From: a virus
Strand: one strand, 5' to 3'
Length of the DNA: 64,000 nt
IMG/VR virus record: IMGVR_UViG_3300010367_000050
Coordinates: 1-64,000 of that record
Below, one piece after another: positions 2,507 through 56,045 of this stretch (position 1 is its first letter; every line of letters begins with the position of its first letter). The position numbers and the translations under genes were made by a program. The notes beneath the pieces are model-generated. The model worked only from the letters and a program-made list of their open reading frames with translations. It was not told the DNA's origin and ran no database searches.

Positions 2507-2965
2507 TTACGCTCCTGTGGAACCGTGTCCACCTTCACCACGTTCGGTTTCATCCAGTTCATCTACCTGGATGGCTTCTCCCATAAAGAATGGGATATAG
2601 CCAATCTGGCAGATACGGTCTCCGGCTTCCCATTCAAAAGGCTCCGTTCCCCGATTTTCCAGGTGAATGGTGATGTCACCGCGATAATCGTTGTCGATGA
2701 GACCTTCCCAGAACAGCCGGACACTCTTCTTGGAAGCCATGCCAGAGCGACTGATCATCAGACCGTGAAGCCTGAACTCATGACCCATGATGTGGGTGCC
2801 AACGTTTACACGGTGCTTTACGCCTGTGTTGACCCGTACCCTGTCTCCAGGAAAAACCACCCCATTGGTGGGAGCATACAGGTCAAAGGCGCCAGACCCT
2901 GGCGTGGATCTCTTGGGGAGAACCGCACCAGGGTGAGTGAGTTTGAATTCAATGCGCGCTGTCAC
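2507..2965 (-). CDS. dut: trimeric dUTPase
   Basis: Motifs AFDL, SRSGMA, GLIDNDYRGDI, GDRICQ, RGEGGHGSTG. Start GTG 2965 immediately after the SSB stop. Confidence 0.95.
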   Translation of the reverse strand: MTARIEFKLTHPGAVLPKRSTPGSGAFDLYAPTNGVVFPGDRVRVNTGVKHRVNVGTHIMGHEFRLHGLMISRSGMASKKSVRLFWEGLIDNDYRGDITIHLENRGTEPFEWEAGDRICQIGYIPFFMGEAIQVDELDETERGEGGHGSTGA

Positions 2966-2966
2966 G

Positions 2967-4139
2967 TTATTTTGTCTTTCCTTTCTTGTGCTTTTCCAGT
3001 ATTTCGTCCAGGCTGTCAAGGTCATCGTCATCGTCGTCAGCCACCGGCTTCTTGGGGGTTGTCTTGGCCTTAGTCTTGGTCTTGGGGGTTTCTTCCTCTT
3101 CCTCCTCAACCTCCTCTTCCTCATCCACAGGCTCAGGGAATTCCTTCAGGTATTCCTTTGCCGGCTTGGATGGACGCTTACCCTCTTCAAGAGGCGGCGC
3201 ATCACCGTGACCGTTGACGCAGACATTGCCGGATGGGCTCTTGTATCGGTTCAGTCCGCAAACGGAGCAACGAGACTTCAGCTTAGGGAACTTGGTGACG
3301 TCCACCTCATCCTCTTCACTTTCGTCTTCATCCGGTTCGGGCTCAACCACCTTTGGTTTCTTCGCCGGAGCCTTCTCCGGGGCCTTAGACGTGGACTTTG
3401 CCGGCTTCTCATCTTCATCCTCATCGTCTTCGTCCTTGGCAGCGTCCTTGAGAGCAGCCCAGCCCTCATCCCAGACCAGCTTGGCCTTCTCAGGCTCGCC
3501 GCCGAACTGACTAAGCAAGTCCGTGAGATCGACAATCTTGGTGTCCTCAGCATCTTTGCCGATGAATGCCTTGATCTTCTTGGGGTCCTCGAAAAGTGGA
3601 CTGGGACGACGCTTGGGAACAACCTTGTACTCGGTGTTCAGGTCTTTGCCACTCTTCTTGACAATAAGGTCCACGCCCTCGTTGACGTCCAACAAATCGG
3701 CGTAGTCATCGGACGCGAGCAGAGTCAGAATCTCCGTGAGAAGCTGAGGACCACACTCCACGGTCTTCTGCTGGTCGTCATCGTCACGGTCGAGCACGTT
3801 GAAAAAGTACCGGCTCTTGCCCTGCTGATCACGACCCATCTGCTGGTCTTTCTTGTCCTTGGAGTTCAACAGTTCCTTGATCTCAGGGCAAATCTCGCAG
3901 GTATCACCCTTGGTTCCATCCTCGCCGTTGAGGCAGATGACCTTGACGCGGTCTTTCTTGTTCCCCTTGGAGTGGAACATGACTTCAACATAGAAGCCAT
4001 CCATATTGGGGTGTCCGGGCACGATACGGATGTTGTTGTCGCCGTCCTGGAACTCCATGTAATTCTTCTTGTACTTGGAGTTCTTGGACTTCAACTTCTC
4101 CAAAACTTTTTTGTATTTGAGCTGTTCTTCAGTTGCCAT
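2967..4139 (-). CDS. single-stranded DNA-binding protein (T4 gp32-like) with long acidic tail
   Basis: NNIRIVP, CL...CEIC, YFFNVLDR, GVDLIVKKSG..TEY, acidic C-terminus DDDDDDLDSLDEIL; replication context. Confidence 0.8.
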   Translation of the reverse strand: MATEEQLKYKKVLEKLKSKNSKYKKNYMEFQDGDNNIRIVPGHPNMDGFYVEVMFHSKGNKKDRVKVICLNGEDGTKGDTCEICPEIKELLNSKDKKDQQMGRDQQGKSRYFFNVLDRDDDDQQKTVECGPQLLTEILTLLASDDYADLLDVNEGVDLIVKKSGKDLNTEYKVVPKRRPSPLFEDPKKIKAFIGKDAEDTKIVDLTDLLSQFGGEPEKAKLVWDEGWAALKDAAKDEDDEDEDEKPAKSTSKAPEKAPAKKPKVVEPEPDEDESEEDEVDVTKFPKLKSRCSVCGLNRYKSPSGNVCVNGHGDAPPLEEGKRPSKPAKEYLKEFPEPVDEEEEVEEEEEETPKTKTKAKTTPKKPVADDDDDDLDSLDEILEKHKKGKTK

Positions 4140-4709: not shown

Positions 4710-7373
4710 TTACGCGGCTTGTTTCCATACTTCCTCTACAATGACCGGAAGTTCACTGAGCTTCTTGACGTCCTTCAGCTGACCCCAGTTCTTGCCAATA
4801 GAGCAATCTGCCACTACTGGAACTCCATCGAGCCATCCGTCATGCGGCGGATTCTCCATGATCCTCTTCACGGCATCGCATACAGCCTCCATCTCTTCCA
4901 TCTTGACAAGCAGGATGATAGAATCATGTACCGTGAGGATGATCTTGGACTGCATCTTGTTCTTGATCAACCAAGCCCGAATGCTAGCGATGGATTGTAA
5001 CGTCCAATCTGAAGCTGTAGCCTGAATGGGCGAGTTGACTCCTTGACGTTCAGCTTTGGCAACAATGTCCTCTTCAGGCGAGAACACAGAGGCCAACCGT
5101 CTGCGGCGTCCGTAAGGAGTGTCAATGTAACCTTGCTCACGCACAAGCTTCTTGGTGTTGTTGATCCAAATCTTGACGCGCTTGAACCGCTTGAAGTAGA
5201 TGCGGATGAATTCCTTGGCTTCTTCCACAGAGCAGCCAATTGTCTTCGCAAGCTTCCTCGGACCCTGACCGTATACAAGACCAAAGTTGATAGTCTTGGC
5301 GACGTTACGTTGGTAGTCAGTAACATCTTCAATAGCAACATTGAATGCCTCAGCTGCAGCACGGCGGTGAATGTCTTCGCCGTCCTGGTAGGCTTTCATC
5401 AGCACAGGGTCTCGCGTCAACGCAGCGAGTACACGAAGCTCAGCCTGAGAATAATCGAATTGAACTATAGCATATCCAGGAATGGCCGCGAACATCTTCT
5501 TGATGGACGGCCAATTACCATCCACAAACGGCTCTCGGGGGTCTGCCTTGAGATTCTTCGGAATCTGCTGGAGGTTGGGATTAGACATAGACAACCGTCC
5601 AGTTTCTGTCCCGGCCACGTTACATGATCCACGAAGTCTCCCATCATCGCAGATCATATCATCCAAGTTCTTGACGAACATGGAATACAACGTGCTCATC
5701 TTGATATAACGGCCCAGCCCCATAATGATATCGTGTTTGTGTTCAAACCACAGAGACTTCATTGTCTCTTTGTCTGTACTGGGGCTTTTGCCACTCTTGG
5801 CAAGCTTGATAGGCTCGAAGCCTAGCAACTCGAACAACAATCTGCGCTTCTGATGCGTGGACTTGGGGTTGAATGTTACAGGCTTGACGGTTACAGGCTT
5901 GAGCTTAGCTCGCTCAATGTCTCCCCGCAACCTGCGTAACTTGGTAGAAGCCTTGTCTGGGTCTACCTGTTCAAGCTCTTGAATCTCTTCAAACCGCTTT
6001 TCAAACCTGGCCTTGCGCTCAGCCTTTTTCTTCTTGATCTGAGTCTTTGTAATCTCATTTTCAATCTGAAGTACCTCGGGGAACTCCCGAAGCCTGGTGA
6101 GCTCTTCATCCAGAAGACGTTCGTATTCAGTCTTGCAATGTTTATGCCAGTCTCTATCAATCGGTGCGCCGGTGTAATATAGATCAGCCAATGCCCTGGT
6201 AGCGGGCATAACAACCTTGTAGAAGACATCCTTGAAGCCCTCATCAATAATAGGCTGAAGCTTCTCATACACACGGTAGGTAACGTCAGCGTCAGCAGCT
6301 GCGTACGTCCACAGGATATCCAGCGGTATATTGCCATATGATCCACCTTGGTCAGGATCAGCTTCCGGGTGACTTGCTTTATAAGCATCCAAGGCATCAT
6401 CGTAGCCACCCATATCTGTATATTCCCACGCGAGAATCTTGAGGCCATGGGTGCCCTTCTCCTCTGTAACTCCGATGTGATGAGCCAGCAGGGTATCAAA
6501 GTCAAACTTAGCGACTCTGATCTTCAGCACTTTCCGGATGTACATCGTATCGAACTGCCCATTATGAGCAATCTTACGAATATGCGTTGTCTCGAATAGT
6601 GACCGGAGTGTTCTGATTATGTAACTGTGCTGCTCCTTGGTCCACGGACTATCCTTATGATCAACCGGAACAACCCAAGCCTTTCCAGCTTTATTTGAGA
6701 AGGCTATAACCTCGACCTTAGCTGGATGAGGCTTGGAGCGAAACGGATTGAGGCTTGAAGACTCAATATCAAACGAAAAGCTCTTAGAGTTCCAGAGCTC
6801 AAACACCATCTTCTTGAACTTGCTAATCGAGTCCACAAGAAGATGATTCGTGGACATAGGTTTGGCTATCTTACCAGCGCCAGCATCCTGAATCTTTTGG
6901 AGGTCAGCTACAAACGTAGCCAGAGAATCGGGGTAGGCAATAACTTGAGTTGGTTGTAGAGTCGGTACACATACGTGCCCGTTTACTTCAAGCACAGCGC
7001 CGTGAGCCATCAGAATTGACTTCTGCTTGGCTACAACCTTACAAGCTGTAGCGCCCATGGGAATCAAGATGGCGGATGGGGATACTCGCTCCAAGAGGGC
7101 GTCTAACAGCGGCCTACACCGTTCAGCCTCTTTGATCTGCGCTTTGAGGTCTTGACCTCCCTGGCATCGAGTCAGGAAGGCCACCTCTACATCGTCTGTG
7201 GGAAAGTCGCACTGCTTCAGCAACTTGACAAGGGTCTTCCTCGCACTATGGGAGTACTGCTCCATAATGAAGAGATACTTGGGGCTGTAATTGAATTCGA
7301 GCGGTGGCAACCACGTAACCGCTGCGCAAGACATCTTACATCCCTGGCACCCAGGATGATTTTTTACTGACAA
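4710..7373 (-). CDS. family A DNA polymerase with N-terminal UDG-like domain and 3'-5' exonuclease
   Basis: FDIESS, AHNGQFD, YAAADAD (exo I-III); TGRLSMSNPNLQQIP, DYSQAELR, AKTINFGLVYG, TVHDS (pol A motifs); N-terminal Cys-containing UDG-like region (MGATA, PTLQP). Confidence 0.96.
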   Translation of the reverse strand: MSVKNHPGCQGCKMSCAAVTWLPPLEFNYSPKYLFIMEQYSHSARKTLVKLLKQCDFPTDDVEVAFLTRCQGGQDLKAQIKEAERCRPLLDALLERVSPSAILIPMGATACKVVAKQKSILMAHGAVLEVNGHVCVPTLQPTQVIAYPDSLATFVADLQKIQDAGAGKIAKPMSTNHLLVDSISKFKKMVFELWNSKSFSFDIESSSLNPFRSKPHPAKVEVIAFSNKAGKAWVVPVDHKDSPWTKEQHSYIIRTLRSLFETTHIRKIAHNGQFDTMYIRKVLKIRVAKFDFDTLLAHHIGVTEEKGTHGLKILAWEYTDMGGYDDALDAYKASHPEADPDQGGSYGNIPLDILWTYAAADADVTYRVYEKLQPIIDEGFKDVFYKVVMPATRALADLYYTGAPIDRDWHKHCKTEYERLLDEELTRLREFPEVLQIENEITKTQIKKKKAERKARFEKRFEEIQELEQVDPDKASTKLRRLRGDIERAKLKPVTVKPVTFNPKSTHQKRRLLFELLGFEPIKLAKSGKSPSTDKETMKSLWFEHKHDIIMGLGRYIKMSTLYSMFVKNLDDMICDDGRLRGSCNVAGTETGRLSMSNPNLQQIPKNLKADPREPFVDGNWPSIKKMFAAIPGYAIVQFDYSQAELRVLAALTRDPVLMKAYQDGEDIHRRAAAEAFNVAIEDVTDYQRNVAKTINFGLVYGQGPRKLAKTIGCSVEEAKEFIRIYFKRFKRVKIWINNTKKLVREQGYIDTPYGRRRRLASVFSPEEDIVAKAERQGVNSPIQATASDWTLQSIASIRAWLIKNKMQSKIILTVHDSIILLVKMEEMEAVCDAVKRIMENPPHDGWLDGVPVVADCSIGKNWGQLKDVKKLSELPVIVEEVWKQAA

Positions 7374-7391: not shown

Positions 7392-7967
7392 CTAGACCGT
7401 GTGGTGTACGCCGTGAGGACGGCAATGATCACAAATTTCAGTTATGCCGTGATCGCAGCTGGGTTCACTAACCTCACGCGGAGCCATCATCTTGGCTTTC
7501 TCCAGTTCAGCAGTTACAGACACCAAGAACCGTTTGTATAGGTCCGGACGCCGTACAAACACCCAGGCGCATAGTTTCATGGCGTACGCAGCTAGATCGA
7601 CACACGTGTCCACAAAGGTCTCGCCATTCTCTTCACGGAGTTCCTCCATATACGCTGTAGATGTAATCTGCGAGGCTATACGCTCCCACTTACGCTCCAT
7701 ATTGAAGAACATAGACAGCAACCCGCGCTTAGACCAGCTGTTGTCGTAATACACATTCTTGGCCAATTGGAGGAGGTTGACATACTTGGAAACACGCATA
7801 AAATCTTCTTCAATGCGGTGATCGCGCTTGGCTTCAGCATTGAGATGAGTGAGCTCTGGAACCTTTGAGATTGAAATGTGATTAGCAGCATAGTCCATAG
7901 CAATCTCAAGCTCTGTGATCTGGTGTTTTAGGGCAGGCAAAACGTCTTTATGTCCAACGTTTATCAT
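7392..7967 (-). CDS. nucleotide modification-associated domain 1 (Nmad1/DUF1599-like) protein
   Basis: KNVYYDNSW..RG...RKWERI...ETFVDTCVDLAAY pattern, inside the modification cluster. Confidence 0.7.
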   Translation of the reverse strand: MINVGHKDVLPALKHQITELEIAMDYAANHISISKVPELTHLNAEAKRDHRIEEDFMRVSKYVNLLQLAKNVYYDNSWSKRGLLSMFFNMERKWERIASQITSTAYMEELREENGETFVDTCVDLAAYAMKLCAWVFVRRPDLYKRFLVSVTAELEKAKMMAPREVSEPSCDHGITEICDHCRPHGVHHTV

Positions 7968-8560
7968 AGGCGGGATTGAGCCTCCATAAGCAAGTAATCG
8001 ATACTGAGGGGAGATACGCCAAACAGCCCTTCCAACGACTCCTTAGCGGCCTCCAATCTGCGTTTGTAGCTCGTGAGCACAAGATGTAGTGCCGTGTTCC
8101 CCAAATCCATTTCATCCAAACAAAACAGGATACCTTCGGCGCAATCTGCTGCGTCGATCAAGACTCCCACTCCTGTGTGATATGACTCTGTAATCAGTAG
8201 ATTACCCCATAGCTCGTGTAGGTAGTTTGCCTCAGCTGTCTCTATCTGGGGGAACAACTGTTTGATATCCCAAGTGACATCTCCAAACTTGGATTCGCCC
8301 ATATCGTGTTTGATGATCCCAAGAAGAACCTCTCTGGAAATCACCCTCCAATATTCCACGCCCTTAGTGTGATTCATCCCTGCGTTATGGGCGGCATAGC
8401 GCACTTGGAGGTCTGATACAAACAACAGAGCCAACTGACAAGCCCTTCCAACGTGTTCGGCATCGCTCTGCTTACGATGGACTAACAGGCGACTGTACCT
8501 GAACACGTGTGACTGAGCACGTATTACTTGTATGATTTCAGATATGCGAATGTCTGACAT
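7964..8560 (-). CDS. HD-domain 5'-deoxynucleotidase (YfbR-like)
   Basis: RY...QSDAEH...HDMGESKFGD...ADCAE. Confidence 0.8.
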   Translation of the reverse strand: MSDIRISEIIQVIRAQSHVFRYSRLLVHRKQSDAEHVGRACQLALLFVSDLQVRYAAHNAGMNHTKGVEYWRVISREVLLGIIKHDMGESKFGDVTWDIKQLFPQIETAEANYLHELWGNLLITESYHTGVGVLIDAADCAEGILFCLDEMDLGNTALHLVLTSYKRRLEAAKESLEGLFGVSPLSIDYLLMEAQSRL

Positions 8561-8561
8561 G

Positions 8562-9707
8562 CTAACCTTTCTGTGCGTCGAAGTCTTTGATCATCCAAGC
8601 CATATGATACGGTAGAGTTTCCAGGATGCTATTGTAAACATCCACCGCGTTCTTGGACTTTCGGCAATGATACATAAACATGACTCGGAACACAGCTTGC
8701 CAATACTCCGGGACATTGAACCGTCCAAAGAAGTCTTCCAGCATCATGAACTTGCTCTGATAGAAAGCTCCGATGGTACTTGGAGATATGTCCTCTTCCT
8801 TGATGCGTTTCAGCCATTGACGCAATAGCTTTTCAAAGGGATTCCAAGCCTTGACCATGAACAGATCGAATGCCTTCAAATCCCATTCCATGGGAGCCAG
8901 GCCGTCGAACATAGTTCGGCTGACAAAATCCAAGTCAACCTTGCGAGACTCAACGCTCTCTGCCCACCCAATCACAGACTCCAGAGCATCAGGGTAGAGG
9001 TTTTTGTAGTAATGGAGGTTGGAGCACATTACTGTGAATGTTCCAACAGTTAGCCCCAATGACCCAGCAATTAGAGCCTGAAGGTGAACAAACTGGCACA
9101 TATTGTAGGGAGTGCCCCACACGAGGTCATTCGAGCGAATTACTACGACCACATTCAGCTTGCCTTCACGCTGAGAGAAATAGATTATGTTGTTGCAGGG
9201 GTAATCCTTGGAGACGGTGTAGTTGTCCTTTACAACGTCCCACAGGCACACGGCTGCTTGCCTCGTATGCTCGTCACCCTGTATCTTGCGGATCACGTGG
9301 TCCAACTGATCGATCTCAACGGACTCTGGAGCCTGACCGGTGCTTACCAGGTATGGCAGTGACCTCCAGGGTTCTTCACGGTAACCCCAATGACGAACAC
9401 GCTTCCCATAAGCCGCGTTGAAGTATGGGATACCAGGGTCCAAGAACTGGCTAATACTGCTGTTGTAGAATGTAATGAAGTCTGCGCCACCCATTCCCGA
9501 CCACATCCAAACAACTTCCGCCAGGGCAAAGAACGGATTGAGCCTACGGCCAGAGATACACAGAGCCCATTCCTGTGGATGTGTCAGGGTCCACGCCTGG
9601 GGATACGCAGCCTCTATACACTCCTGACCCCTAGGGATTACCAGGTTACCATTGCGTACACGTTGAACTAACTGGGGGTAGACAGTCATAATGTTGCGAG
9701 AAATCAT
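8562..9707 (-). CDS. thymidylate synthase-family enzyme, probably dUMP hydroxymethylase
   Basis: AYGKR, TRQA, DYPCN catalytic Cys, RSNDLVWGTPYN (Asn = dUMP-type specificity), NLHYY; next to 5-hmU kinase/transferase genes. Confidence 0.85.
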   Translation of the reverse strand: MISRNIMTVYPQLVQRVRNGNLVIPRGQECIEAAYPQAWTLTHPQEWALCISGRRLNPFFALAEVVWMWSGMGGADFITFYNSSISQFLDPGIPYFNAAYGKRVRHWGYREEPWRSLPYLVSTGQAPESVEIDQLDHVIRKIQGDEHTRQAAVCLWDVVKDNYTVSKDYPCNNIIYFSQREGKLNVVVVIRSNDLVWGTPYNMCQFVHLQALIAGSLGLTVGTFTVMCSNLHYYKNLYPDALESVIGWAESVESRKVDLDFVSRTMFDGLAPMEWDLKAFDLFMVKAWNPFEKLLRQWLKRIKEEDISPSTIGAFYQSKFMMLEDFFGRFNVPEYWQAVFRVMFMYHCRKSKNAVDVYNSILETLPYHMAWMIKDFDAQKG

Positions 9708-9812: not shown

Positions 9813-10100
9813 TTAGGTGGTCTTTTCTTCCTGTTCGTCAGCCTCTTCGGACTCAGGCACGGCAGGCTGTTCCATCTGTTCGCGATCTGCGGCTGTCGCC
9901 ACGTCACCAAGGTCAGTGATAAACTTAGGGAACTTGGACAGGGCGGATTGAATGGAGCCGTTGATTGCTGTAGCCAACTCCGGACTGATCTGTTGTCCGT
10001 TTGACAATTGAGCGCGCAGGGTGGCAATATCGCCGCTTACACGAGCCAACTCAGAGGATGCCTCGGTACACACACTGATTACTTTCTGTACATTTGCCAT
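9813..10100 (-). CDS. hypothetical protein, acidic C-terminus
   Basis: 95 aa, AAGGA upstream, operon orientation. Confidence 0.7.
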   Translation of the reverse strand: MANVQKVISVCTEASSELARVSGDIATLRAQLSNGQQISPELATAINGSIQSALSKFPKFITDLGDVATAADREQMEQPAVPESEEADEQEEKTT

Positions 10101-10105
10101 GGAAT

Positions 10106-11095
10106 TTATCCTTTCAATCTGTTGAACGTTTTGCTTCCCGGCTTGGCTTTCGCCGTGAACTTATTGCGAGGTCGCCCCGTTTCGTTCAAGGCCTTGAAGT
10201 ATTTGAAACACTCGCATAAACAATGCTCAATGTTTCGCAACGTTAGGTCTCTTCCGAGATACGCAATGGAATCAAACGGAAGATTTAGGCGCTTGAATTC
10301 TCTCTTCTGTATGAATCTTAGGACACGGATCATACCATCGCAATCGCCCGTAGGTAGACCCTCAAAGATGAATTTCAATCCTCGCTGGCATCCAGGTCCA
10401 GGGTTCACCCACTCATCCTCACTAAGATTGTTCCATTTGGCATAGGATATATCCACGGCGATCTCATACGCCAAGAACGGACCAATGCCAGGAAACTTGG
10501 TGAGAGCCTTGTGGATTACCTCCAGAGACTTAGCCTTCTTGATGATATTCATCAACGCGGGTAGACCCTTGAAGACACCCTTGAAAATGTATTCAAACCT
10601 CTCCAACTTGTCCTTGCCAGGGAAATGCTCATAGGCACACACCATATGGGCGTCTGTGTACAGGGGCTGGCCCTTCACCATGGCACAACGCCAAATATCA
10701 AAACATTCATAGTGTTTCCAGGACCACACTGGATTATCCGGAGTGCCAGACCTTGCGTAGATGTTCTGGTACCCTACAAGCTGGTAGGTGCTGATACGAT
10801 TGAACATCCTATATATGATGATGTTGAACACATCCTCCATCGGAGTACCTTTTCCAAGGATATTGTCAATCAAGAACAAGGTGCCACGGTCAAGTTCGCG
10901 GTACACGTTGGTGAACTTGTACTCCTTGAGAATAGGATCATCTGTCCACGGCGCAGGCTGCTCAAGCTTGAACCTCTTGTACCAAATCATATGGCGTTGG
11001 AAGATGAATTTCCAAAACAAGTCCAGGTTCTTTTGGTTTACAACAACGCCCTTATCAGCCAAGGCCTGAGCAATAACATTCGTGAGAGTCGCCAT
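10106..11095 (-). CDS. aGPT-Pplase1 / 5-hmdU DNA kinase helical-domain family protein
   Basis: PWTDDPILKEYKFTNVYRELDRGT, YRMFN, GIGPFLAYEIAVD, GPGCQRGL, IEHCLCECFKY. Confidence 0.85.
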   Translation of the reverse strand: MATLTNVIAQALADKGVVVNQKNLDLFWKFIFQRHMIWYKRFKLEQPAPWTDDPILKEYKFTNVYRELDRGTLFLIDNILGKGTPMEDVFNIIIYRMFNRISTYQLVGYQNIYARSGTPDNPVWSWKHYECFDIWRCAMVKGQPLYTDAHMVCAYEHFPGKDKLERFEYIFKGVFKGLPALMNIIKKAKSLEVIHKALTKFPGIGPFLAYEIAVDISYAKWNNLSEDEWVNPGPGCQRGLKFIFEGLPTGDCDGMIRVLRFIQKREFKRLNLPFDSIAYLGRDLTLRNIEHCLCECFKYFKALNETGRPRNKFTAKAKPGSKTFNRLKG

Positions 11096-11781
11096 CAGAA
11101 CAATCCTTTCAGTTCAGGATACAGTTCCAGGAACTTCTGGAACACTTCCTGTTTCGATCCAGTAGTATCAAGGACTGTACAAGGCACGAGTCCTTCATCC
11201 AGGTAGTGCTGTAGATGTTTGGCTGAGTTTTGATACTTCTGCCTCACCATCTCCTCGTTGATGGACTTACCGCCGTTGCGACTCTGGATACGACGCAGGC
11301 ATTCCTTGAACTTGGTGCCCATGAAACAAAAACTCAACTCTCTGGTGTGTATAGCTCGGAATTCCAACATAATCCTGTAGAAGGTCTCGCGGATGTCTCC
11401 AACAATCACGCCCTCGTACAGAATGTGCACATCCTTTCTCCACAGGTGTTTCAACACATCCTTTACAACCTGAGTGTTTCCGAGAGAATCACACCCGCCA
11501 CAATTGGTGAGATAGGTTCCAATCAAAGCTGTGTTGAACTTGCGGCAATATACTCCAACTGGCTTGACATCATTCTTAGACATAGTCAGGAACGTCCAGG
11601 ACTGATCATTATCGATCATCTGCATAGGGACAGTAGACTTACCGCTACCGTTAGTACCCTTCAGATTGATAGCCAGCCTGTGGTAGGTCGAGGCTTTGTC
11701 CAAGTCTTGAATACGCTTGACCTTTCGCAGATCATACTGCTGGAGCCACCCTTCGCTGTCTCTACTGCTTGATCTTCGCAT
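11095..11781 (-). CDS. P-loop nucleotide kinase, 5-hmU DNA kinase-associated type
   Basis: INLKGTNGSGKST Walker A, IGTY...CGGCD, LYEGV, CLRRIQSRNG. Confidence 0.8.
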   Translation of the reverse strand: MRRSSSRDSEGWLQQYDLRKVKRIQDLDKASTYHRLAINLKGTNGSGKSTVPMQMIDNDQSWTFLTMSKNDVKPVGVYCRKFNTALIGTYLTNCGGCDSLGNTQVVKDVLKHLWRKDVHILYEGVIVGDIRETFYRIMLEFRAIHTRELSFCFMGTKFKECLRRIQSRNGGKSINEEMVRQKYQNSAKHLQHYLDEGLVPCTVLDTTGSKQEVFQKFLELYPELKGLF

Positions 11782-13693
11782 CTGTGATCTCCGTCTTGGG
11801 TAGCAGTCCGCGCTTGATCATAGGCCATGTACCAATCATGTGACCTGTTTCAATCAAAGTCTTTCTCCATTTGGCAACCACTTTCAACCTCTGCGGTGAG
11901 GCGTACTCTCCAAGGTACTCCCACGGCATAGTCTCCCGCCGGAATTGCCATAGCACCTTCCAGTCAACTCCGCTTGCTATTTCTTCATTCTCCATCTGCA
12001 GAATCTCGTCTGCCATGCGGTCCAGGTAGTATCCCAGGTACCGCCCATTGGCGAAGAAACCCTTGTAAGCGCACAAGCAGGATTCCATAAACCAGTGATC
12101 AACCTTGACGCTTGGATACTCATGCCTCAACTCGGCCATCAAACAATCGAGCTCAGCTTCCAGGTAGCTCCAATGTTGTTTCTGTAAGGTAGCCTTTGCC
12201 CAATCTGGTTTCTCCAACACGTAGCATAGTCCTGCCCGTGGAGAGCTTGCCTCTTTGAGAAACACGGTATCGGCCTCCATCGGTAAGCCCATACACCGGG
12301 CTAGGCACTCCGTGTATATGTAAACCGAGTACCTTCCAAAGCGCAACAATTTCGTGAGGGCTTGTGTTACTTGATGGAAGTTCTGGACGGGAGTTCCCTT
12401 CAACATTCGGCCAAAGAATTCGTCTTGAGACGTGGGGGTTTGCGATCCAATCAGGTCTATGTAGCTCTTGACCATCTGAACAAAGTGGCCTTTCTCATAC
12501 TTGCGATCTTTGTTGTACCGTAGCTGCCTCCAGTTTTGATCGTGCCATCGCTGGAGCCGTCCCAGGTCCACCTTCTCAAACTCAGGGAACTCTTGCATTA
12601 CATAGAACACTGTGCCAGGGTGATAGAATACACCATACAAGAAGCAAGCCCAGTATTCTTGAGACTTGGACAACTCGTACCGTTGGAACAAGTAGTTCAT
12701 CAGCGGGTAGTTGGGATCAATCTCCCATGATCGAATAGCTGCAGCTGAATATCTCTTGAAGGATTCGCGCTTGTTTTTCCGGTGGTCTCCGGCCTTAGCT
12801 TCCGGGTTGTCGAGGTTCAAATCGGAGCCTCTCAACGTAATCTCAGAGTTATTGAGAAACGCTCGGTCGATAAGCTTAGGACGGAAAAACGTCACGTCTG
12901 GAGCGTGGGGCACATCAAACGTGTAAGCGCCATTCTCCGCTTCATAATTGAGCTGCCCCAGCTTACAGATCGTGTACGGGTCCAATTTACCCCACGCCGC
13001 AGCCTCGTGTAAACTCTTCCATTTCATCTTACTGAACGCACGAGACAATATGTCTTCCGTGGATCCAAACCCGTGCATCCCATAGTTGGGAACTTCAAAC
13101 ACCCATAGCGGTCGAATATGATCCCGTGTTAGCAAGATATCGCCGTTGGATTGTAGCAAAGCCAAGGCAAATATGGGAGTATCCACTTTGTACAAGGTAC
13201 GCAGAGCAGCAGCTAACACATCCTCTGGCTCATACTCGTCATTGCCAGAGGAATACAACTTGTCCCAAATCTTCTCCATTTTGGCAAGGATGACCTCACT
13301 GTCATTCTCTGTCTTAGTCTGTACCTTATACAATTTCTGGAACTCATCCTTGGTAGCCATAGACACTAGCCCGTTGTGAGCCAATGACATAGTGCCGTAC
13401 GTGATGGGCTGGTTGTTCCAGTTATTGGAGGCATCACCGCTGGTGGAGTACCGGCAATGAGCTATCATAGACGTGGGCCGTTCATCCTTGATCTGCTTCC
13501 ACTTATCTGACTTGATAAAATCTTCAGCGGGCATGGGAGCTTTAGCAGCTACAACCTTTGTACCGCGTACCCACGAGACTCCCGTGGCGTGCTTGCCCCT
13601 GATCTGGCTCTGTACCAGCAGGTGCTCGAATACTTCAAACGCTTTGTCCAGATTACCGCCTGGGGCTAACTTGAAACCAGCTATTCCACACAT
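11762..13693 (-). CDS. fusion of class II (Ntn) glutamine amidotransferase and amino acid:DNA transferase (aGPT-Pplase2-like)
   Basis: True start MCGIAGF at 13693 with GGGAGAG RBS. RGKHATG, AHCRYST, NNQP, HNG, DSEV, RDHIRPL = GATase II. C-half DPNYP..WACFLYGVFY..FGRYSVYIYTECL..ESCLCAYK..YLGYYLDR = HhH-derived DNA transferase. Confidence 0.85.
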   Translation of the reverse strand: MCGIAGFKLAPGGNLDKAFEVFEHLLVQSQIRGKHATGVSWVRGTKVVAAKAPMPAEDFIKSDKWKQIKDERPTSMIAHCRYSTSGDASNNWNNQPITYGTMSLAHNGLVSMATKDEFQKLYKVQTKTENDSEVILAKMEKIWDKLYSSGNDEYEPEDVLAAALRTLYKVDTPIFALALLQSNGDILLTRDHIRPLWVFEVPNYGMHGFGSTEDILSRAFSKMKWKSLHEAAAWGKLDPYTICKLGQLNYEAENGAYTFDVPHAPDVTFFRPKLIDRAFLNNSEITLRGSDLNLDNPEAKAGDHRKNKRESFKRYSAAAIRSWEIDPNYPLMNYLFQRYELSKSQEYWACFLYGVFYHPGTVFYVMQEFPEFEKVDLGRLQRWHDQNWRQLRYNKDRKYEKGHFVQMVKSYIDLIGSQTPTSQDEFFGRMLKGTPVQNFHQVTQALTKLLRFGRYSVYIYTECLARCMGLPMEADTVFLKEASSPRAGLCYVLEKPDWAKATLQKQHWSYLEAELDCLMAELRHEYPSVKVDHWFMESCLCAYKGFFANGRYLGYYLDRMADEILQMENEEIASGVDWKVLWQFRRETMPWEYLGEYASPQRLKVVAKWRKTLIETGHMIGTWPMIKRGLLPKTEITDAKIKQ

Positions 13694-13710
13694 GCTCTCT
13701 CCCAAATAGC

Positions 13711-13741
13711 AAAAGTGGGGAGCCTGTTTTGGTCTCCCCAC
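13711..13741 (-). terminator. Rho-independent terminator
   Basis: minus strand GTGGGGAGACC-AAAACA-GGCTCCCCAC-TTTT. Confidence 0.7.
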
Positions 13742-13774
13742 TTCACTCACGACTTCCTGCCGGCGCGAATCGAA

Positions 13775-14785
13775 CTACTTGCCGCCCAGGGCCTTCTTGA
13801 CTTCCATCACGCGCCGCATGTGGTCGATTCGGGCATCGCCCTTCTCTTCCACCTTCAGCTTGAGCTGCTTGGTGAACTTCGCCGAAACCTTGTACTTGTC
13901 TTCGCCCTTCACAGCGTCCAGAGCGTCCTGGAACTCCTGCTGCTTGGCATTGAGCTTCGGCTTTTCCTTCTTGGGCTTCTCGGCCTTGGCCGGAGCAGCG
14001 GTCTCCTTGGTCTTACCCGCAGACTTCTTGGACTTGGGAGCTTCCTCCTCTTCCTCATCCTCATCTTCTGCGTCGTCCTCGGTCTCCTCAGCCTCTTCTT
14101 CGTCGGCCTCAAGCTCCTCGTCTTCGCCCTCGGTCTCCTCGTCAAGCTCCAGTTCGTCGTCAATCTCTTCGGGTTCCGGCTTGCTCTTTGCTTTCGCCAT
14201 GTCGACAGTCTCCTTGGTTTTCACCTTTTGGTTCGTCGTGTTCACGGTCACGATACGAAGTTTGCCGTTGTACACAATGAGCGATACCTTGTCACCGGAA
14301 GTCAAGGCTTTGGCTATTTGCCCGCTCTTGCGCGTAATAACATCAGACACCGTGTCGGGATTGTCCTTAGACACCTTGTACGATGGCTTGATCTGGACCA
14401 AGCTAACAGCACCATCACTGTTACCTGAATTCCTTGAACCGCACTTACTGCGGCACAAAACTCTGTCGAGACACGCCGCACACTCTTCCGTGGTCTTGTC
14501 GTAGAATTTTCCAAAACAACCCGGAATAACTGACGTGCCTGGCATATGTGCTCCTAAAATCTGTGCAATCTTGAAGCCCTCCGCAGCTTTGTGCGTGTGA
14601 ATCCAACGCATCAACACAATTGAAGGCTTCCTTGGAATCCCTTTCGACAGCATGCTATCAATCACGCTGTCTAACTGCTTGGAGTCCATATTGTCATGGG
14701 CAATTCCGCCTAACTCATAGACAATCCCACGAAGCACGAATGATCGTTGCGCTTCTACTTGGATGTCCGATACCGGCTGTCCCAT
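13775..14785 (-). CDS. hypothetical protein with Cys-cluster N-domain and acidic/Lys-rich C-domain
   Basis: GCFG...ECAACLDRVLC motif; E/D-rich then K-rich tail; probable internal start at 14200. Confidence 0.7.
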   Translation of the reverse strand: MGQPVSDIQVEAQRSFVLRGIVYELGGIAHDNMDSKQLDSVIDSMLSKGIPRKPSIVLMRWIHTHKAAEGFKIAQILGAHMPGTSVIPGCFGKFYDKTTEECAACLDRVLCRSKCGSRNSGNSDGAVSLVQIKPSYKVSKDNPDTVSDVITRKSGQIAKALTSGDKVSLIVYNGKLRIVTVNTTNQKVKTKETVDMAKAKSKPEPEEIDDELELDEETEGEDEELEADEEEAEETEDDAEDEDEEEEEAPKSKKSAGKTKETAAPAKAEKPKKEKPKLNAKQQEFQDALDAVKGEDKYKVSAKFTKQLKLKVEEKGDARIDHMRRVMEVKKALGGK

Positions 14786-55481: not shown

Positions 55482-56045
55482 ATGAATGCTGACGAAATGA
55501 AAGCTCTGCGTAATGCTCGCAGAGAGAAGTGGGACATGAGGTTTCTCCAGATGGCCTGTATGCTAGGCAAATGGAGCAAAGACCGCAGTGATCGCACTCC
55601 TGGGGTTGGGTCCGTTATTGTCGACCGATCTACTCTGCGAGTTGTGTCTGTTGGGTACAACGGGTTTCCGGCAGGGATCAACGATGATATAGCCGGACGG
55701 CACGAGCGTCCAGAGAAATACCAGTGGACCGTTCACGCTGAAGCCAACGCTATTGCCGGAGCAGCACAACTTGGAATTCGCCTGGCTGGAACCTCACTCT
55801 ACAGTACACAAATCCCATGCTCAGGTTGTATGGCTCTGCTTATTCAAGCGGGTATTCAATTTGCCATATTTCCCAATTTCACTGATCTTCCGGAGAAATG
55901 GTTACAAGACTGTGCTATTTCTATACAAATGGCCCAAGAGGCAGGAGTGATAACAAGAATCTATGAGTCAATCGCGCCAATATCTATTGAGCATCGTCGC
56001 CCAACTTCCGGAACACTTCAGAAAGCTTTGTCGTCACGTAGTTGA
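55482..56045 (+). CDS. dCMP deaminase
   Basis: SKD..VGSVIV..GYNGFP..HAEANAI..PCSGC. Confidence 0.93.
   Translation: MNADEMKALRNARREKWDMRFLQMACMLGKWSKDRSDRTPGVGSVIVDRSTLRVVSVGYNGFPAGINDDIAGRHERPEKYQWTVHAEANAIAGAAQLGIRLAGTSLYSTQIPCSGCMALLIQAGIQFAIFPNFTDLPEKWLQDCAISIQMAQEAGVITRIYESIAPISIEHRRPTSGTLQKALSSRS

Follow-up and report, generated by a model that had tools for sequence, protein, structure and literature searches.

The window was a stretch of 64,000 nucleotides (positions 1 to 64,000 of the IMG/VR virus record IMGVR_UViG_3300010367_000050); the whole virus record was 80.5 kb long and 99% complete according to CheckV. The window encoded a protein in which a glutamine amidotransferase (GATase) was joined to an amino acid:DNA transferase (AADT), and the following features were located in it:

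11762..13693, minus strand: GATase-AADT fusion gene, 643 amino acids plus stop (open reading frame and translation; Pfam GATase_6 and ADDT; AF2 model)
12914..13693, minus strand: class II (Ntn, PurF-type) glutaminase domain, residues 1-260 of the fusion (PDB profile search, VIA-align, residue conservation)
11765..12790, minus strand: AADT (aGPT-Pplase2) domain, residues 302-643 (PF18724, gp46 fold match, active-site alignment)
13705..13745, minus strand: hairpin GGGGAG...CTCCCC followed by TTTT, and a Shine-Dalgarno-like stretch before the ATG (direct reading of the sequence)
11095..11781, minus strand: 5-hmdU DNA kinase, P-loop subunit, 228 amino acids (Pfam HMUDK_HMUD1, E 9.8e-19; homologue of gp49 of Pseudomonas phage PaMx11)
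10106..11095, minus strand: 5-hmdU DNA kinase helical protein (formerly aGPT-Pplase1), 329 amino acids (Pfam HMUDK_hel, E 5.8e-65)
9813..10100, minus strand: open reading frame of 95 amino acids inside the cluster, without assigned function
8562..9707, minus strand: thymidylate-synthase (TS) family enzyme, probable dUMP hydroxymethylase, 381 amino acids (Pfam Thymidylat_synt, E 1.3e-23; phrog_5131)
7964..8560, minus strand: HD-domain / YfbR-like nucleotidase, 198 amino acids (weak Pfam YfbR-like match, E 2.1e-5, below the cut-off; position of PaMx11 gp52)
4710..7373, minus strand: family A DNA polymerase with 3'-5' exonuclease (Pfam DNA_pol_A, E 8.8e-100; exo1, E 1.7e-19)
2507..3124, minus strand: dUTPase, feeding dUMP (Pfam dUTPase, E 5e-23)
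55482..56045, plus strand: dCMP deaminase, feeding dUMP (Pfam dCMP_cyt_deam_1, E 4.9e-17)

The ATG at 13693 was the true start of the fusion gene and gave the N-terminal Met-Cys-Gly. Directly 5' of this ATG there was GGGAGAGAG, which was Shine-Dalgarno-like. An alternative start, the GTG at 13750, adjoined the hairpin on its upstream side, and the hairpin itself was not flagged by a consensus terminator scan. The translation contained the motifs MCGIAG, HCRYSTSG, HNG and NDSE, in line with the initial annotation, which had described an intact Ntn-GATase (Met-Cys-Gly, HCRYST, HNG, DSE) fused in frame to an AADT-like half. Pfam assigned residues 74-141 to GATase_6 (E 3.8e-9) and residues 330-545 to ADDT/PF18724 (E 9e-26, 91.5 bits, cut-off 26.2), and Pfam, fold and catalytic residues agreed for both halves. 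The AF2 model of the fused protein had a pLDDT of 93.2 and a pTM of 0.92. The census of the fusion suggested at that time returned at least 57 full-length metagenomic protein clusters with the same architecture, at 30-60% identity. Since the architecture was conserved across these independent homologues, we rejected a chance open reading frame or a mis-assembly.

The order from the fusion gene onwards was kinase, helical partner, TS-like enzyme, HD protein and DNA polymerase. The kinase and fusion genes shared 20 nt, the kinase ATG lying within the 3' end of the fusion gene, and the helical partner came next. Pfam confirmed the run that had been read from the sequence, namely the fusion followed by a P-loop kinase, an aGPT-Pplase1/HMUDK-helical protein and a dUMP hydroxymethylase-like enzyme. 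The helical protein was 28% identical to PaMx11 gp50 (E 1.5e-28), and the TS-like enzyme belonged to the same BLAST cluster as the PaMx11 gp51 homologues and carried PCNN and TPYN motifs. We rejected a dCMP or hmC pathway on account of the Asn of the PYN motif together with the dCMP deaminase and the dUTPase. The N-terminal region of the DNA polymerase was weakly UDG-like (Pfam E 7.7e-4, below the cut-off). For the 95-residue reading frame, neither a Pfam family above the cut-off nor a BLAST relative in the related loci was found, and a second reading frame of the cluster without assigned function encoded 191 amino acids.

Six-frame searches of the whole 80.5-kb record revealed no GNAT, radical SAM, DAO-type flavoenzyme, PLP decarboxylase or TET/JBP, and a Pfam tally that covered 42 non-structural ORFs showed no accessory tailoring enzymes either. 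Acyltransferase, ligase and methyltransferase families were likewise undetected in this 99%-complete genome. Thus, the absence of accessory PLP, radical SAM, flavin and acetyl enzymes, first noted for the window, extended to the whole record.

Profile and structure searches of both halves, which had been proposed along with the census, identified the N-terminal half as PurF-type and the C-terminal half as having the PaMx11 gp46 fold. For the N-terminal domain, the PDB profile search led to PurF (8w7d/1ecb, E about 1e-13), and VIA-align matched PurF 8w7d with a Z-score of 24.7 (rmsd 2.7 A, 235 residues) and GlmS 1xff with a Z-score of 23.7. The Ntn alpha-beta-beta-alpha fold was also found by Foldseek (E 4e-9). 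Residues R32/G33, R81, Y82, T84, N107/G108 and D131 aligned with PurF R26/G27, R73, Y74, T76, N101/G102 and D127 and were invariant in the 57 homologues (30-60% identity). The catalytic Cys2, the counterpart of PurF Cys1, was present in all 52 fused homologues with an intact N-terminus and had a counterpart in 63 of 64 GATases from split systems, where the two domains were encoded separately. Since the catalytic residues were invariant, we rejected an inactive glutaminase. The N-terminal domain was therefore predicted to be an active glutaminase built for free glutamine.

The same fold search also matched stand-alone hydrolases (EgtC, an amidohydrolase, Z 20.8), which would suit a different order of events. 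In this case, the AADT would install glutamine, or another amino acid bearing a gamma-glutamyl or amide group, via its alpha-amine, and the Ntn domain, as an amidohydrolase, would then cleave the adduct on the DNA and could, for instance, convert N-alpha-glutaminyl-T to N-alpha-glutamyl-T, the base of phage SP10. Characterised AADTs do transfer amino acids or amines (Lee 2021, PMC8989533), and the genome had no other tailoring enzymes. However, D131, R81 and T84 were invariant, and their PurF/GlmS counterparts hold the free alpha-amino and alpha-carboxylate groups of glutamine, so that an N-alpha-substituted, DNA-tethered glutamine would not fit. We consider such trimming of an appended residue quite unlikely.

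The fold search with the fusion model found the two-helix-bundle AADT fold. The C-terminal domain (model residues 302-591) matched PaMx11 gp46, the glycine:DNA transferase, with a Z-score of 18.2 (8z2m_A, rmsd 3.3 A, 253 of 287 residues), and the next unrelated match had a Z-score of 9.3. This fold match, together with the PF18724 assignment, spoke against a C-terminal half unrelated to AADTs. A sequence search of the PDB with this half found no AADT, hhalign against gp46 gave a probability of only 5%, and Foldseek with the whole fusion model returned GATase matches only, so the fold search alone linked the half to gp46. Residues E537, C541 and K544 aligned with gp46 E243, C247 and K250 and were invariant, and the Glu/Cys pair of the ExxxC motif (E537/C541) also aligned with the enzyme of SFP10 (ViI-like). 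The Cys and Glu of this motif were essential in M6 gp51 and ViI gp247, and the AADT methylene intermediate could be trapped by foreign nucleophiles (Lee 2021, PMC8989533). The C-terminal half was predicted from these alignments to be an active AADT.

Among cultured phages, the closest sequences to the C-terminal half were the ViI serine:DNA transferase gp247 and its Ackermannviridae relatives, which had about 27% identity to fusion residues 297-640 (E about 1e-15) and shared the EFP and ExxxC motifs. In contrast to the fusion, these enzymes were stand-alone, with serine as their nucleophile and a subsequent PLP decarboxylase step. No cultured phage covered at least 80% of the fusion in tblastn, and the cluster had no megablast match among 50,697 phage genomes.

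The best described relative of the cluster as a whole was the 5-AcNmdU pathway of PaMx11, which consisted of gp46 (glycine:DNA transferase/PUGT; structures 8Z2M/8Z2N, PMC11472151), gp47 (FAD lyase/NGTO), gp48 (acetyltransferase), the gp49/gp50 kinase and the TS-like gp51 (Lee 2021, PMC8989533). The gene order of gp46-gp55 was matched in our phage, minus gp47 and gp48, and the kinase, helical and TS proteins were homologous. The AADT domains had a common fold and a common Glu/Cys/Lys active-site motif, although their identity was only about 15% and they did not match in BLAST. In addition, the AADT of the fusion phage bore the N-terminal glutaminase domain, whereas the gp47 lyase and gp48 acetyltransferase were lacking. 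No DAO family match occurred in the phage's own genome, and BLAST found no gp47 homologue in 79 related loci or in the window. In both systems, 5-aminomethyl-2'-deoxyuridine (5-NmdU) was the predicted intermediate or product. The predicted nitrogen source of the fusion was glutamine-derived ammonia, used in one step, as opposed to glycine followed by oxidative cleavage in PaMx11.

Gene contexts drawn from IMG/VR and GTDB provided further insights. In addition to the fused forms, which formed their own clade in a quick AADT tree, about 65 further viral loci had separate GATase and AADT genes that were adjacent and often overlapping. A sister fusion locus (L004) encoded a GNAT of the gp48 type and no gp47, and a split locus (L018) also carried a gp48-type GNAT. 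The relatives of the L004 GNAT among the 50,697 phage genomes (tblastn) were only the gp48-type acetyltransferases of 17 PaMx11-like phages. It has been reported that gp48 accepts 5-NmdU and not glycinyl-T (Lee 2021, PMC8989533). A gp48-type acetyltransferase would thus fit a primary aminomethyl product, which argued against trimming of an appended amino acid. The GNATs near split systems were diverse, with close gp48 likeness in only some of them. HMMs of the neighbouring GNAT clusters all matched gp48 in a 10-protein database, and we rejected these matches as non-specific; the gp48 link therefore rested on the tblastn search with the L004 GNAT across the phage genomes. The GNAT argument for 5-NmdU came from relatives and not from this phage.

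A GNAT adjoined the module in about 30 of 78 related loci, and this frequency favoured another possibility, namely that ammonia was delivered but 5-NmdU was an intermediate, to which a host enzyme or the product of an unannotated small ORF would add an acyl or alkyl group. The 95- and 191-residue reading frames inside the cluster could hide such a tailoring activity. In a variant of this scenario, only a sequence-specific subset of hmU would be converted, the rest being T or hmU; in known hypermodifying phages, some of the hmU escapes conversion (Lee 2021, PMC8989533). Against the intermediate stood the lack of detectable acyltransferase, ligase and methyltransferase families described above, and we regard this possibility, in either form, as rather unlikely.

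Separate GATase, P-loop kinase and AADT genes also occurred in metavirome TET/JBP (5mYOX) ParB-dependent clusters, where the function of the GATase was listed as unknown (Lee 2021, PMC8989533; PMC13229309). These clusters had the same GATase and AADT families, the same invariant catalytic residues, and adjacent or overlapping genes. In contrast to the fusion, they encoded two separate proteins, and their 5-hmU was made post-replicatively by a T-dioxygenase with ParB. In the fusion phage, a single polypeptide was encoded in a cluster that lacked TET, ParB and GNAT and had a dUMP hydroxymethylase for pre-replicative synthesis.

The split systems allowed prediction of the complex between the two proteins. 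One GATase/AADT pair gave an ipSAE of 0.92, against 0.00 for the best control. Among 80 solved complexes, 58 scored as high, as did 2 of 110 mismatched pairs; this calibration held only roughly because the prediction was built on custom alignments. At least 94% of the contacts agreed between runs, and the pLDDT of the partners was at least 93. The interface contained the glutaminase loops equal to R32-G33, Y82-T84 and G108 of the window protein, and it was enriched in positions whose conservation among the fused proteins was 90% or more, both in the GATase (15 of 26 against 24 of 219, p = 2e-7) and in the AADT (14 of 24 against 73 of 277, p = 0.002). The ViI gp247 group differed from the predicted GATase-docking surface at several positions (R338, S342, V375, D376, G575 and W578). 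The catalytic Cys541 and Glu537 were absent from the list of interface residues. According to these models, the active-site face of the glutaminase was predicted to be set against the AADT. Such a face would be buried and not exposed to DNA, which again argued against an amidohydrolase acting on a DNA-bound adduct.

The interface also bore on whether the glutaminase feeds the transferase at all. It might instead provide local glutamate for N-alpha-glutamyl transfer, serve as a glutamine sensor or regulator, or be a relic. We found nothing specific in favour of these roles, apart from the fact that the ammonia channel was only predicted. The conserved and confidently predicted interface involved active-site loops, and the invariance of the catalytic residues across 57 fused and 34 split homologues argued against a relic. 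Moreover, glutamate is abundant in cells, so a dedicated supply would be unnecessary. An uncoupled glutaminase therefore appeared very improbable.

Instead, we propose that the fusion protein would be a bifunctional glutamine-dependent amidotransferase with a base in DNA as its acceptor. The first two steps of the pathway were inferred from family membership, and the third step was new and also inferred. At step 1, dTTP would be replaced by 5-hmdUTP through the dUTPase, dCMP deaminase, TS-like dUMP hydroxymethylase and HD protein, and the phage's own PolA would replicate the DNA. At step 2, the P-loop kinase and its helical partner would phosphorylate 5-hmdU in DNA to 5-phosphomethyl-dU (5-PmdU). 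At step 3, the AADT domain would flip out 5-PmdU, and Cys541 and Glu537 would expel the phosphate, leaving an electrophilic exocyclic methylene. In the glutaminase domain, the N-terminal Cys would hydrolyse free L-glutamine, and the ammonia would cross the domain interface and attack the methylene, yielding 5-NmdU, glutamate and phosphate. The glycine and FAD-lyase route of PaMx11 would thereby be bypassed. On the strength of the sequences and models, we consider it fairly probable that glutamine-derived ammonia displaces the phosphate of 5-PmdU to form 5-NmdU directly.

The initial annotation had offered three roles for the GATase. One-step supply of ammonia was favoured because of the invariant PurF-type glutamine-site residues, the predicted active-site interface facing the transferase, the PaMx11 synteny without the FAD lyase, and the gp48-type acetyltransferase of the sister locus; supply of glutamate, and amidation or cleavage of a transferred Glu or Gln, were less favoured. 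The predicted chemistry was of the same kind as in PurF, the best sequence and fold match of the N-terminal domain, where glutamine-derived NH3 displaces pyrophosphate, a phosphate-type leaving group on an activated carbon. Unlike PurF, the acceptor domain of the fusion was an all-helical, HhH-glycosylase-like DNA enzyme rather than a phosphoribosyltransferase, its putative acceptor was a base in polymeric DNA, and its ammonia channel was only predicted. The ammonium route of tRNA MnmEG to nm5U is a parallel reaction. With neither an acetyltransferase nor any other tailoring enzyme in the phage, modification probably stopped at 5-NmdU, a base with a positive charge.

The association of GATase, AADT and kinase had already been published with function unknown (Lee 2021, PMC8989533; PMC13229309). 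Thus, the earlier suggestion of an uncharacterised pathway variant did not apply to the gene association, and it stood for the ammonia chemistry and for the covalent joining of the two domains within an hmU-type cluster. Neither was reported in the papers covered. The aGPT-Pplase neighbourhoods were reportedly first described by Iyer et al. 2013 (NAR 41:7635), who may already mention the fusion architecture or a role of ammonia. To our knowledge, the AADTs characterised so far all take an amino acid or polyamine, 5-NmdU is known only via the glycine and flavin-lyase route, and 5-aminomethyluracil has been documented only as a pathway intermediate. The fusion could be the first glutamine amidotransferase with a nucleobase acceptor in polymeric DNA, forming 5-NmdU in one step and leaving the bare cationic 5-aminomethyluracil as the final virion base; for this combined claim, our doubt slightly outweighed our belief.

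Thymidine hypermodification shields phage DNA from restriction and supplies enzymes with which DNA can be functionalised at specific sites. With stoichiometry and complex formation built in, the fused form would be the easiest representative of the family to assay. If our proposal is true, kinase and fusion would provide a compact two-enzyme tool that puts primary amines on hmU-containing DNA. Moreover, ammonia would join the AADT nucleophiles, the amidotransferase superfamily would be extended to a DNA acceptor, and the GATase genes of unknown function in hundreds of viral hypermodification clusters would be explained.

The fusion gene, which encodes a class II (Ntn, PurF-type) glutaminase (GATase) joined to an amino acid:DNA transferase (AADT), was one uninterrupted reading frame of 643 codons (window 11762-13693, minus strand). 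Its longest ORF version started at GTG 13750. However, this GTG lay shortly after the stop of the upstream gene, with a GGGGAG...CTCCCC hairpin and then TTTT just downstream of it, while GGGAGAGAG preceded ATG 13693, and the fusion protein was therefore taken to start Met-Cys-Gly, as is required of class II glutamine amidotransferases. The translation contained MCGIAG, HCRYSTSG, HNG and NDSE, the motifs read by the initial annotation. The in-frame fusion that it had described was also borne out, since Pfam found both families in the one ORF: GATase_6 at residues 74-141 (E 3.8e-9) and ADDT/PF18724 at residues 330-545 (91.5 bits against a cut-off of 26.2). Directly upstream, a 336-aa protein (window 13775-14785, minus strand) carried an extended stretch of Glu/Asp, then a tail rich in Lys, and matched no Pfam family; its homologue (cluster c109) occupied the same position ahead of the fusion in the related locus L003.

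Profile and structure searches of both halves identified an Ntn glutaminase and an AADT fold, respectively. The AlphaFold2 model, built on 57 homologues, was confident throughout (mean pLDDT 93.2, pTM 0.92), and the high pTM implied that the two domains would be held in a fixed arrangement. In an all-against-representatives structural search with this model, residues 2 to ~260 matched PurF (8w7d; Z 24.7, rmsd 2.7 A, 235 residues), the GlmS glutaminase domain (Z 23.7) and other Ntn amidotransferases. Residues 302-591 matched gp46 of Pseudomonas phage PaMx11 (8z2m_A; Z 18.2, rmsd 3.3 A, 253/287 residues), a 5-phosphomethyl-dU glycinyltransferase of known crystal structure, followed by queuine-salvage DUF2419 (Z 9.3) and HhH glycosylases (Z 6-8). 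With sequence methods alone, no link between the C-terminal half and gp46 emerged.

Catalytic residues were compared among 57 full-length homologues with 30-60% identity to the window protein. R32, G33, H79, R81, Y82, T84, N107, G108, D131 and E133 were invariant, and Cys2 was found in all homologues with an intact N-terminus (52/52). A PDB profile search aligned the glutaminase residues with PurF Cys1, R26/G27, R73, Y74, T76, N101/G102 and D127. Judged from sequence, the GATase half keeps the full residue set for free-glutamine binding and thioester stabilisation. In the C-terminal half, E537, C541 and K544 were invariant and aligned with E243/C247/K250 of gp46 and with the matching motif of a ViI-like serine transferase. 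M6 gp51 and ViI gp247 have been reported to require this Cys and the Glu next to it, and the AADT reaction to pass through an exocyclic methylene that outside nucleophiles (e.g., mercaptoethanol, borohydride) can trap (PMC8989533). Ammonia would thus be acceptable to this chemistry in principle.

Physical coupling was predicted for one natural split pair (related locus L029), with a 34-row alignment per chain. The complex had an ipSAE of 0.92 against 0.00 for the best control, a mark reached by 58/80 solved complexes and 2/110 mismatched pairs, figures that calibrate it only roughly because we used our own alignments. Contact agreement between runs was at least 94% and partner pLDDT at least 93. 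We know of no solved GATase/AADT-type complex, so recall of a memorised structure was unlikely. The predicted GATase interface included Met1, R30-H33, Y72-T74, G98, R159-P160 and S174-D177, which mapped to M1, R32-H35, Y82-T84, G108, R194-P195 and S211-D214 of the window protein, namely the active-site loops, among them the residue corresponding to PurF Tyr74. The interface was strongly enriched for positions with at least 90% conservation among the fused forms, both on the GATase side (15/26 vs 24/219, Fisher p = 2e-7) and on the AADT side (14/24 vs 73/277, p = 0.002), where R338, S/N342, V375, D376, G575 and W578 were conserved in GATase-linked AADTs but different in the ViI-like enzyme. The prediction supports, although it does not prove, an amidotransferase-type layout with the glutaminase site opening toward the transferase. 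If an amino acid were instead appended to the DNA and then trimmed (e.g., glutaminyl-T to glutamyl-T), the glutaminase would act on the DNA-linked product. This route was disfavoured, since the residues that would hold a free alpha-amino and alpha-carboxylate group in the pocket were invariant and the active-site face was buried against the AADT in the predicted complex. A glutaminase serving glutamate supply or regulation found no specific support.

The kinase, aGPT-Pplase1/helical and dUMP hydroxymethylase-like run that the initial annotation had placed after the fusion was recovered by Pfam on the same strand.

Genes following the fusion gene in the window
11095-11781, minus: P-loop protein, 5-hmdU DNA kinase; its ATG overlaps the last 20 nt of the fusion gene
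10106-11095, minus: helical kinase-family protein (HMUDK_hel, E 5.8e-65)
9813-10100, minus: 95-aa ORF, function not assigned, between the helical protein and the TS-family gene
8562-9707, minus: thymidylate-synthase (TS) family enzyme with PCNN and PYN motifs
after the TS-family gene, minus: HD protein (placed by downstream run order)
7392-7967, minus: 191-aa ORF, function not assigned, between the HD protein and the DNA polymerase
4710-7373, minus: family A DNA polymerase, 887 aa, exonuclease and polymerase domains

Neither the 95-aa nor the 191-aa ORF matched any family significantly; at their positions, related loci carried non-homologous small ORFs. Near its N-terminus (residues 40-154), before the exonuclease and polymerase domains, the DNA polymerase weakly matched uracil-DNA-glycosylase (E 7.7e-4, below cut-off), an arrangement resembling the UDG-fused PolA enzymes known from phages whose genomes are T-modified (PMC13697223). 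The virus record was an 80.5-kb genome rated 99% complete that also encoded dUTPase and dCMP deaminase. In agreement with the earlier reading that accessory enzymes were missing, no DAO, GNAT, radical SAM, PLP decarboxylase or TET was found in this genome.

The gene order was that of PaMx11, where the gp46 AADT is followed by gp47 FAD lyase, gp48 acetyltransferase, gp49 kinase, gp50 helical protein, gp51 TS-like enzyme, gp52 HD protein and, further on, gp55 DNA polymerase. However, the window had neither gp47 nor gp48, and its AADT carried a glutaminase domain, unlike that of the PaMx11 cluster. Homologues of gp49, gp50 and gp51 were present in the window and related loci, and none of gp47 was found in any of 79 related loci. 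In the sister fusion locus L004, the order was fusion, kinase, 159-aa ORF, GNAT, helical protein, TS-like enzyme and HD protein. This GNAT was 35% identical to gp48 (E 2e-23), and its only matches among 50,697 phage genomes were the acetyltransferases from 17 Pseudomonas phages of the PaMx11 type. It has been reported that gp48 acetylates 5-aminomethyl-dU (5-NmdU) and not glycinyl-thymidine (PMC8989533). Since a gp48-type enzyme stood beside the GATase-AADT and the lyase was absent, the simplest explanation of the L004-type gene content would be that 5-NmdU is delivered by the GATase-AADT itself. Some GNAT lay beside the module in ~30/78 related loci; the more distant of these GNATs were taken as weak evidence only. 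The 159-aa ORF (L004:9856-10335), between the kinase and the gp48-like acetyltransferase, had no relatives in other loci.

A census of the fusion, as the initial annotation had suggested, yielded at least 57 clusters of full-length fusions in a large protein collection, all metagenomic and none with a functional name. No cultured phage among 50,697 records covered 80% of the fusion protein. Among 185,579 species genomes, a full-length fusion occurred on one MAG contig only (L083:8001-9880, 41% identity). This contig, 125 kb long and assigned to a Candidatus Sulfotelmatobacter MAG, has the fusion gene at its end; it could be a prophage or phage DNA placed in the wrong bin, and might point to a host. 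When ORFs were clustered across the 79 related loci from IMG/VR, seven fused proteins were found (the window's own and those of L001-L006), and an eighth fused GATase-AADT (L014:44-1324) was truncated at the contig end. Separate GATase (~200 aa) and AADT (~293-330 aa) genes, usually adjacent and often overlapping, were present in ~65 loci, and the split GATases kept the catalytic set M1, C2, R30, G31, R71, Y72, T74, N97, G98 and D121. Most split loci were cassettes of ParB, P-loop kinase, GATase, AADT and TET/JBP, the "ParB-dependent 5mYOX" neighbourhood (PMC13229309), whereas the fused forms belonged to clusters of the dUMP-hydroxymethylase type. A quick maximum-likelihood tree of the AADT domain showed the window's clade, with six fused forms, to be monophyletic (SH-aLRT 99); the L014 form grouped apart from it with the split L012 and L018. 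Thus, at least two fusion or fission events would be needed by this tree. A conserved ~306-aa protein (cluster c17; e.g., L024:10082-11002) lay beside or between split GATase/AADT genes in 11 loci, in many cases together with a GNAT (cluster c39). The ~306-aa protein had no Pfam match and might be a tailoring enzyme that has so far escaped recognition.

That GATase genes occur together with those for AADT and kinase has already been published, and GATases were listed among the machinery linked to thymidine hypermodification (PMC13229309 and its preprint). No experimental product, ammonia route or covalent fusion was found in the literature surveyed, which did not cover Iyer 2013. Particular to the window locus were the single-polypeptide form, its place inside a PaMx11-like pre-replicative hmU cluster and the complete absence of downstream tailoring enzymes.

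In the pathway that we propose, hmdUTP would be made and incorporated, as suggested by the TS-like enzyme (PCNN, PYN), dUTPase, dCMP deaminase and HD protein. From family membership, the kinase pair would then phosphorylate hmU in DNA; hmU-DNA kinase activity was shown for homologues of this pair (PMC8989533). Next, glutamine would be hydrolysed at Cys2, and ammonia would cross the domain interface and attack the methylene generated by Cys541/Glu537, giving 5-NmdU, glutamate and phosphate. This would be analogous to PurF chemistry, where NH3 displaces pyrophosphate. In tRNA, the ammonium branch of MnmEG leads to nm5U without the glycine and MnmC detour, and the last proposed step can be likened to it. 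Products of the small ORFs with no assigned function, or host enzymes, might modify 5-NmdU further. Since the genome lacked a tailoring enzyme, 5-NmdU was probably the end product in this phage, and we infer that the transfer of glutamine-derived ammonia to a DNA base would be a new step.
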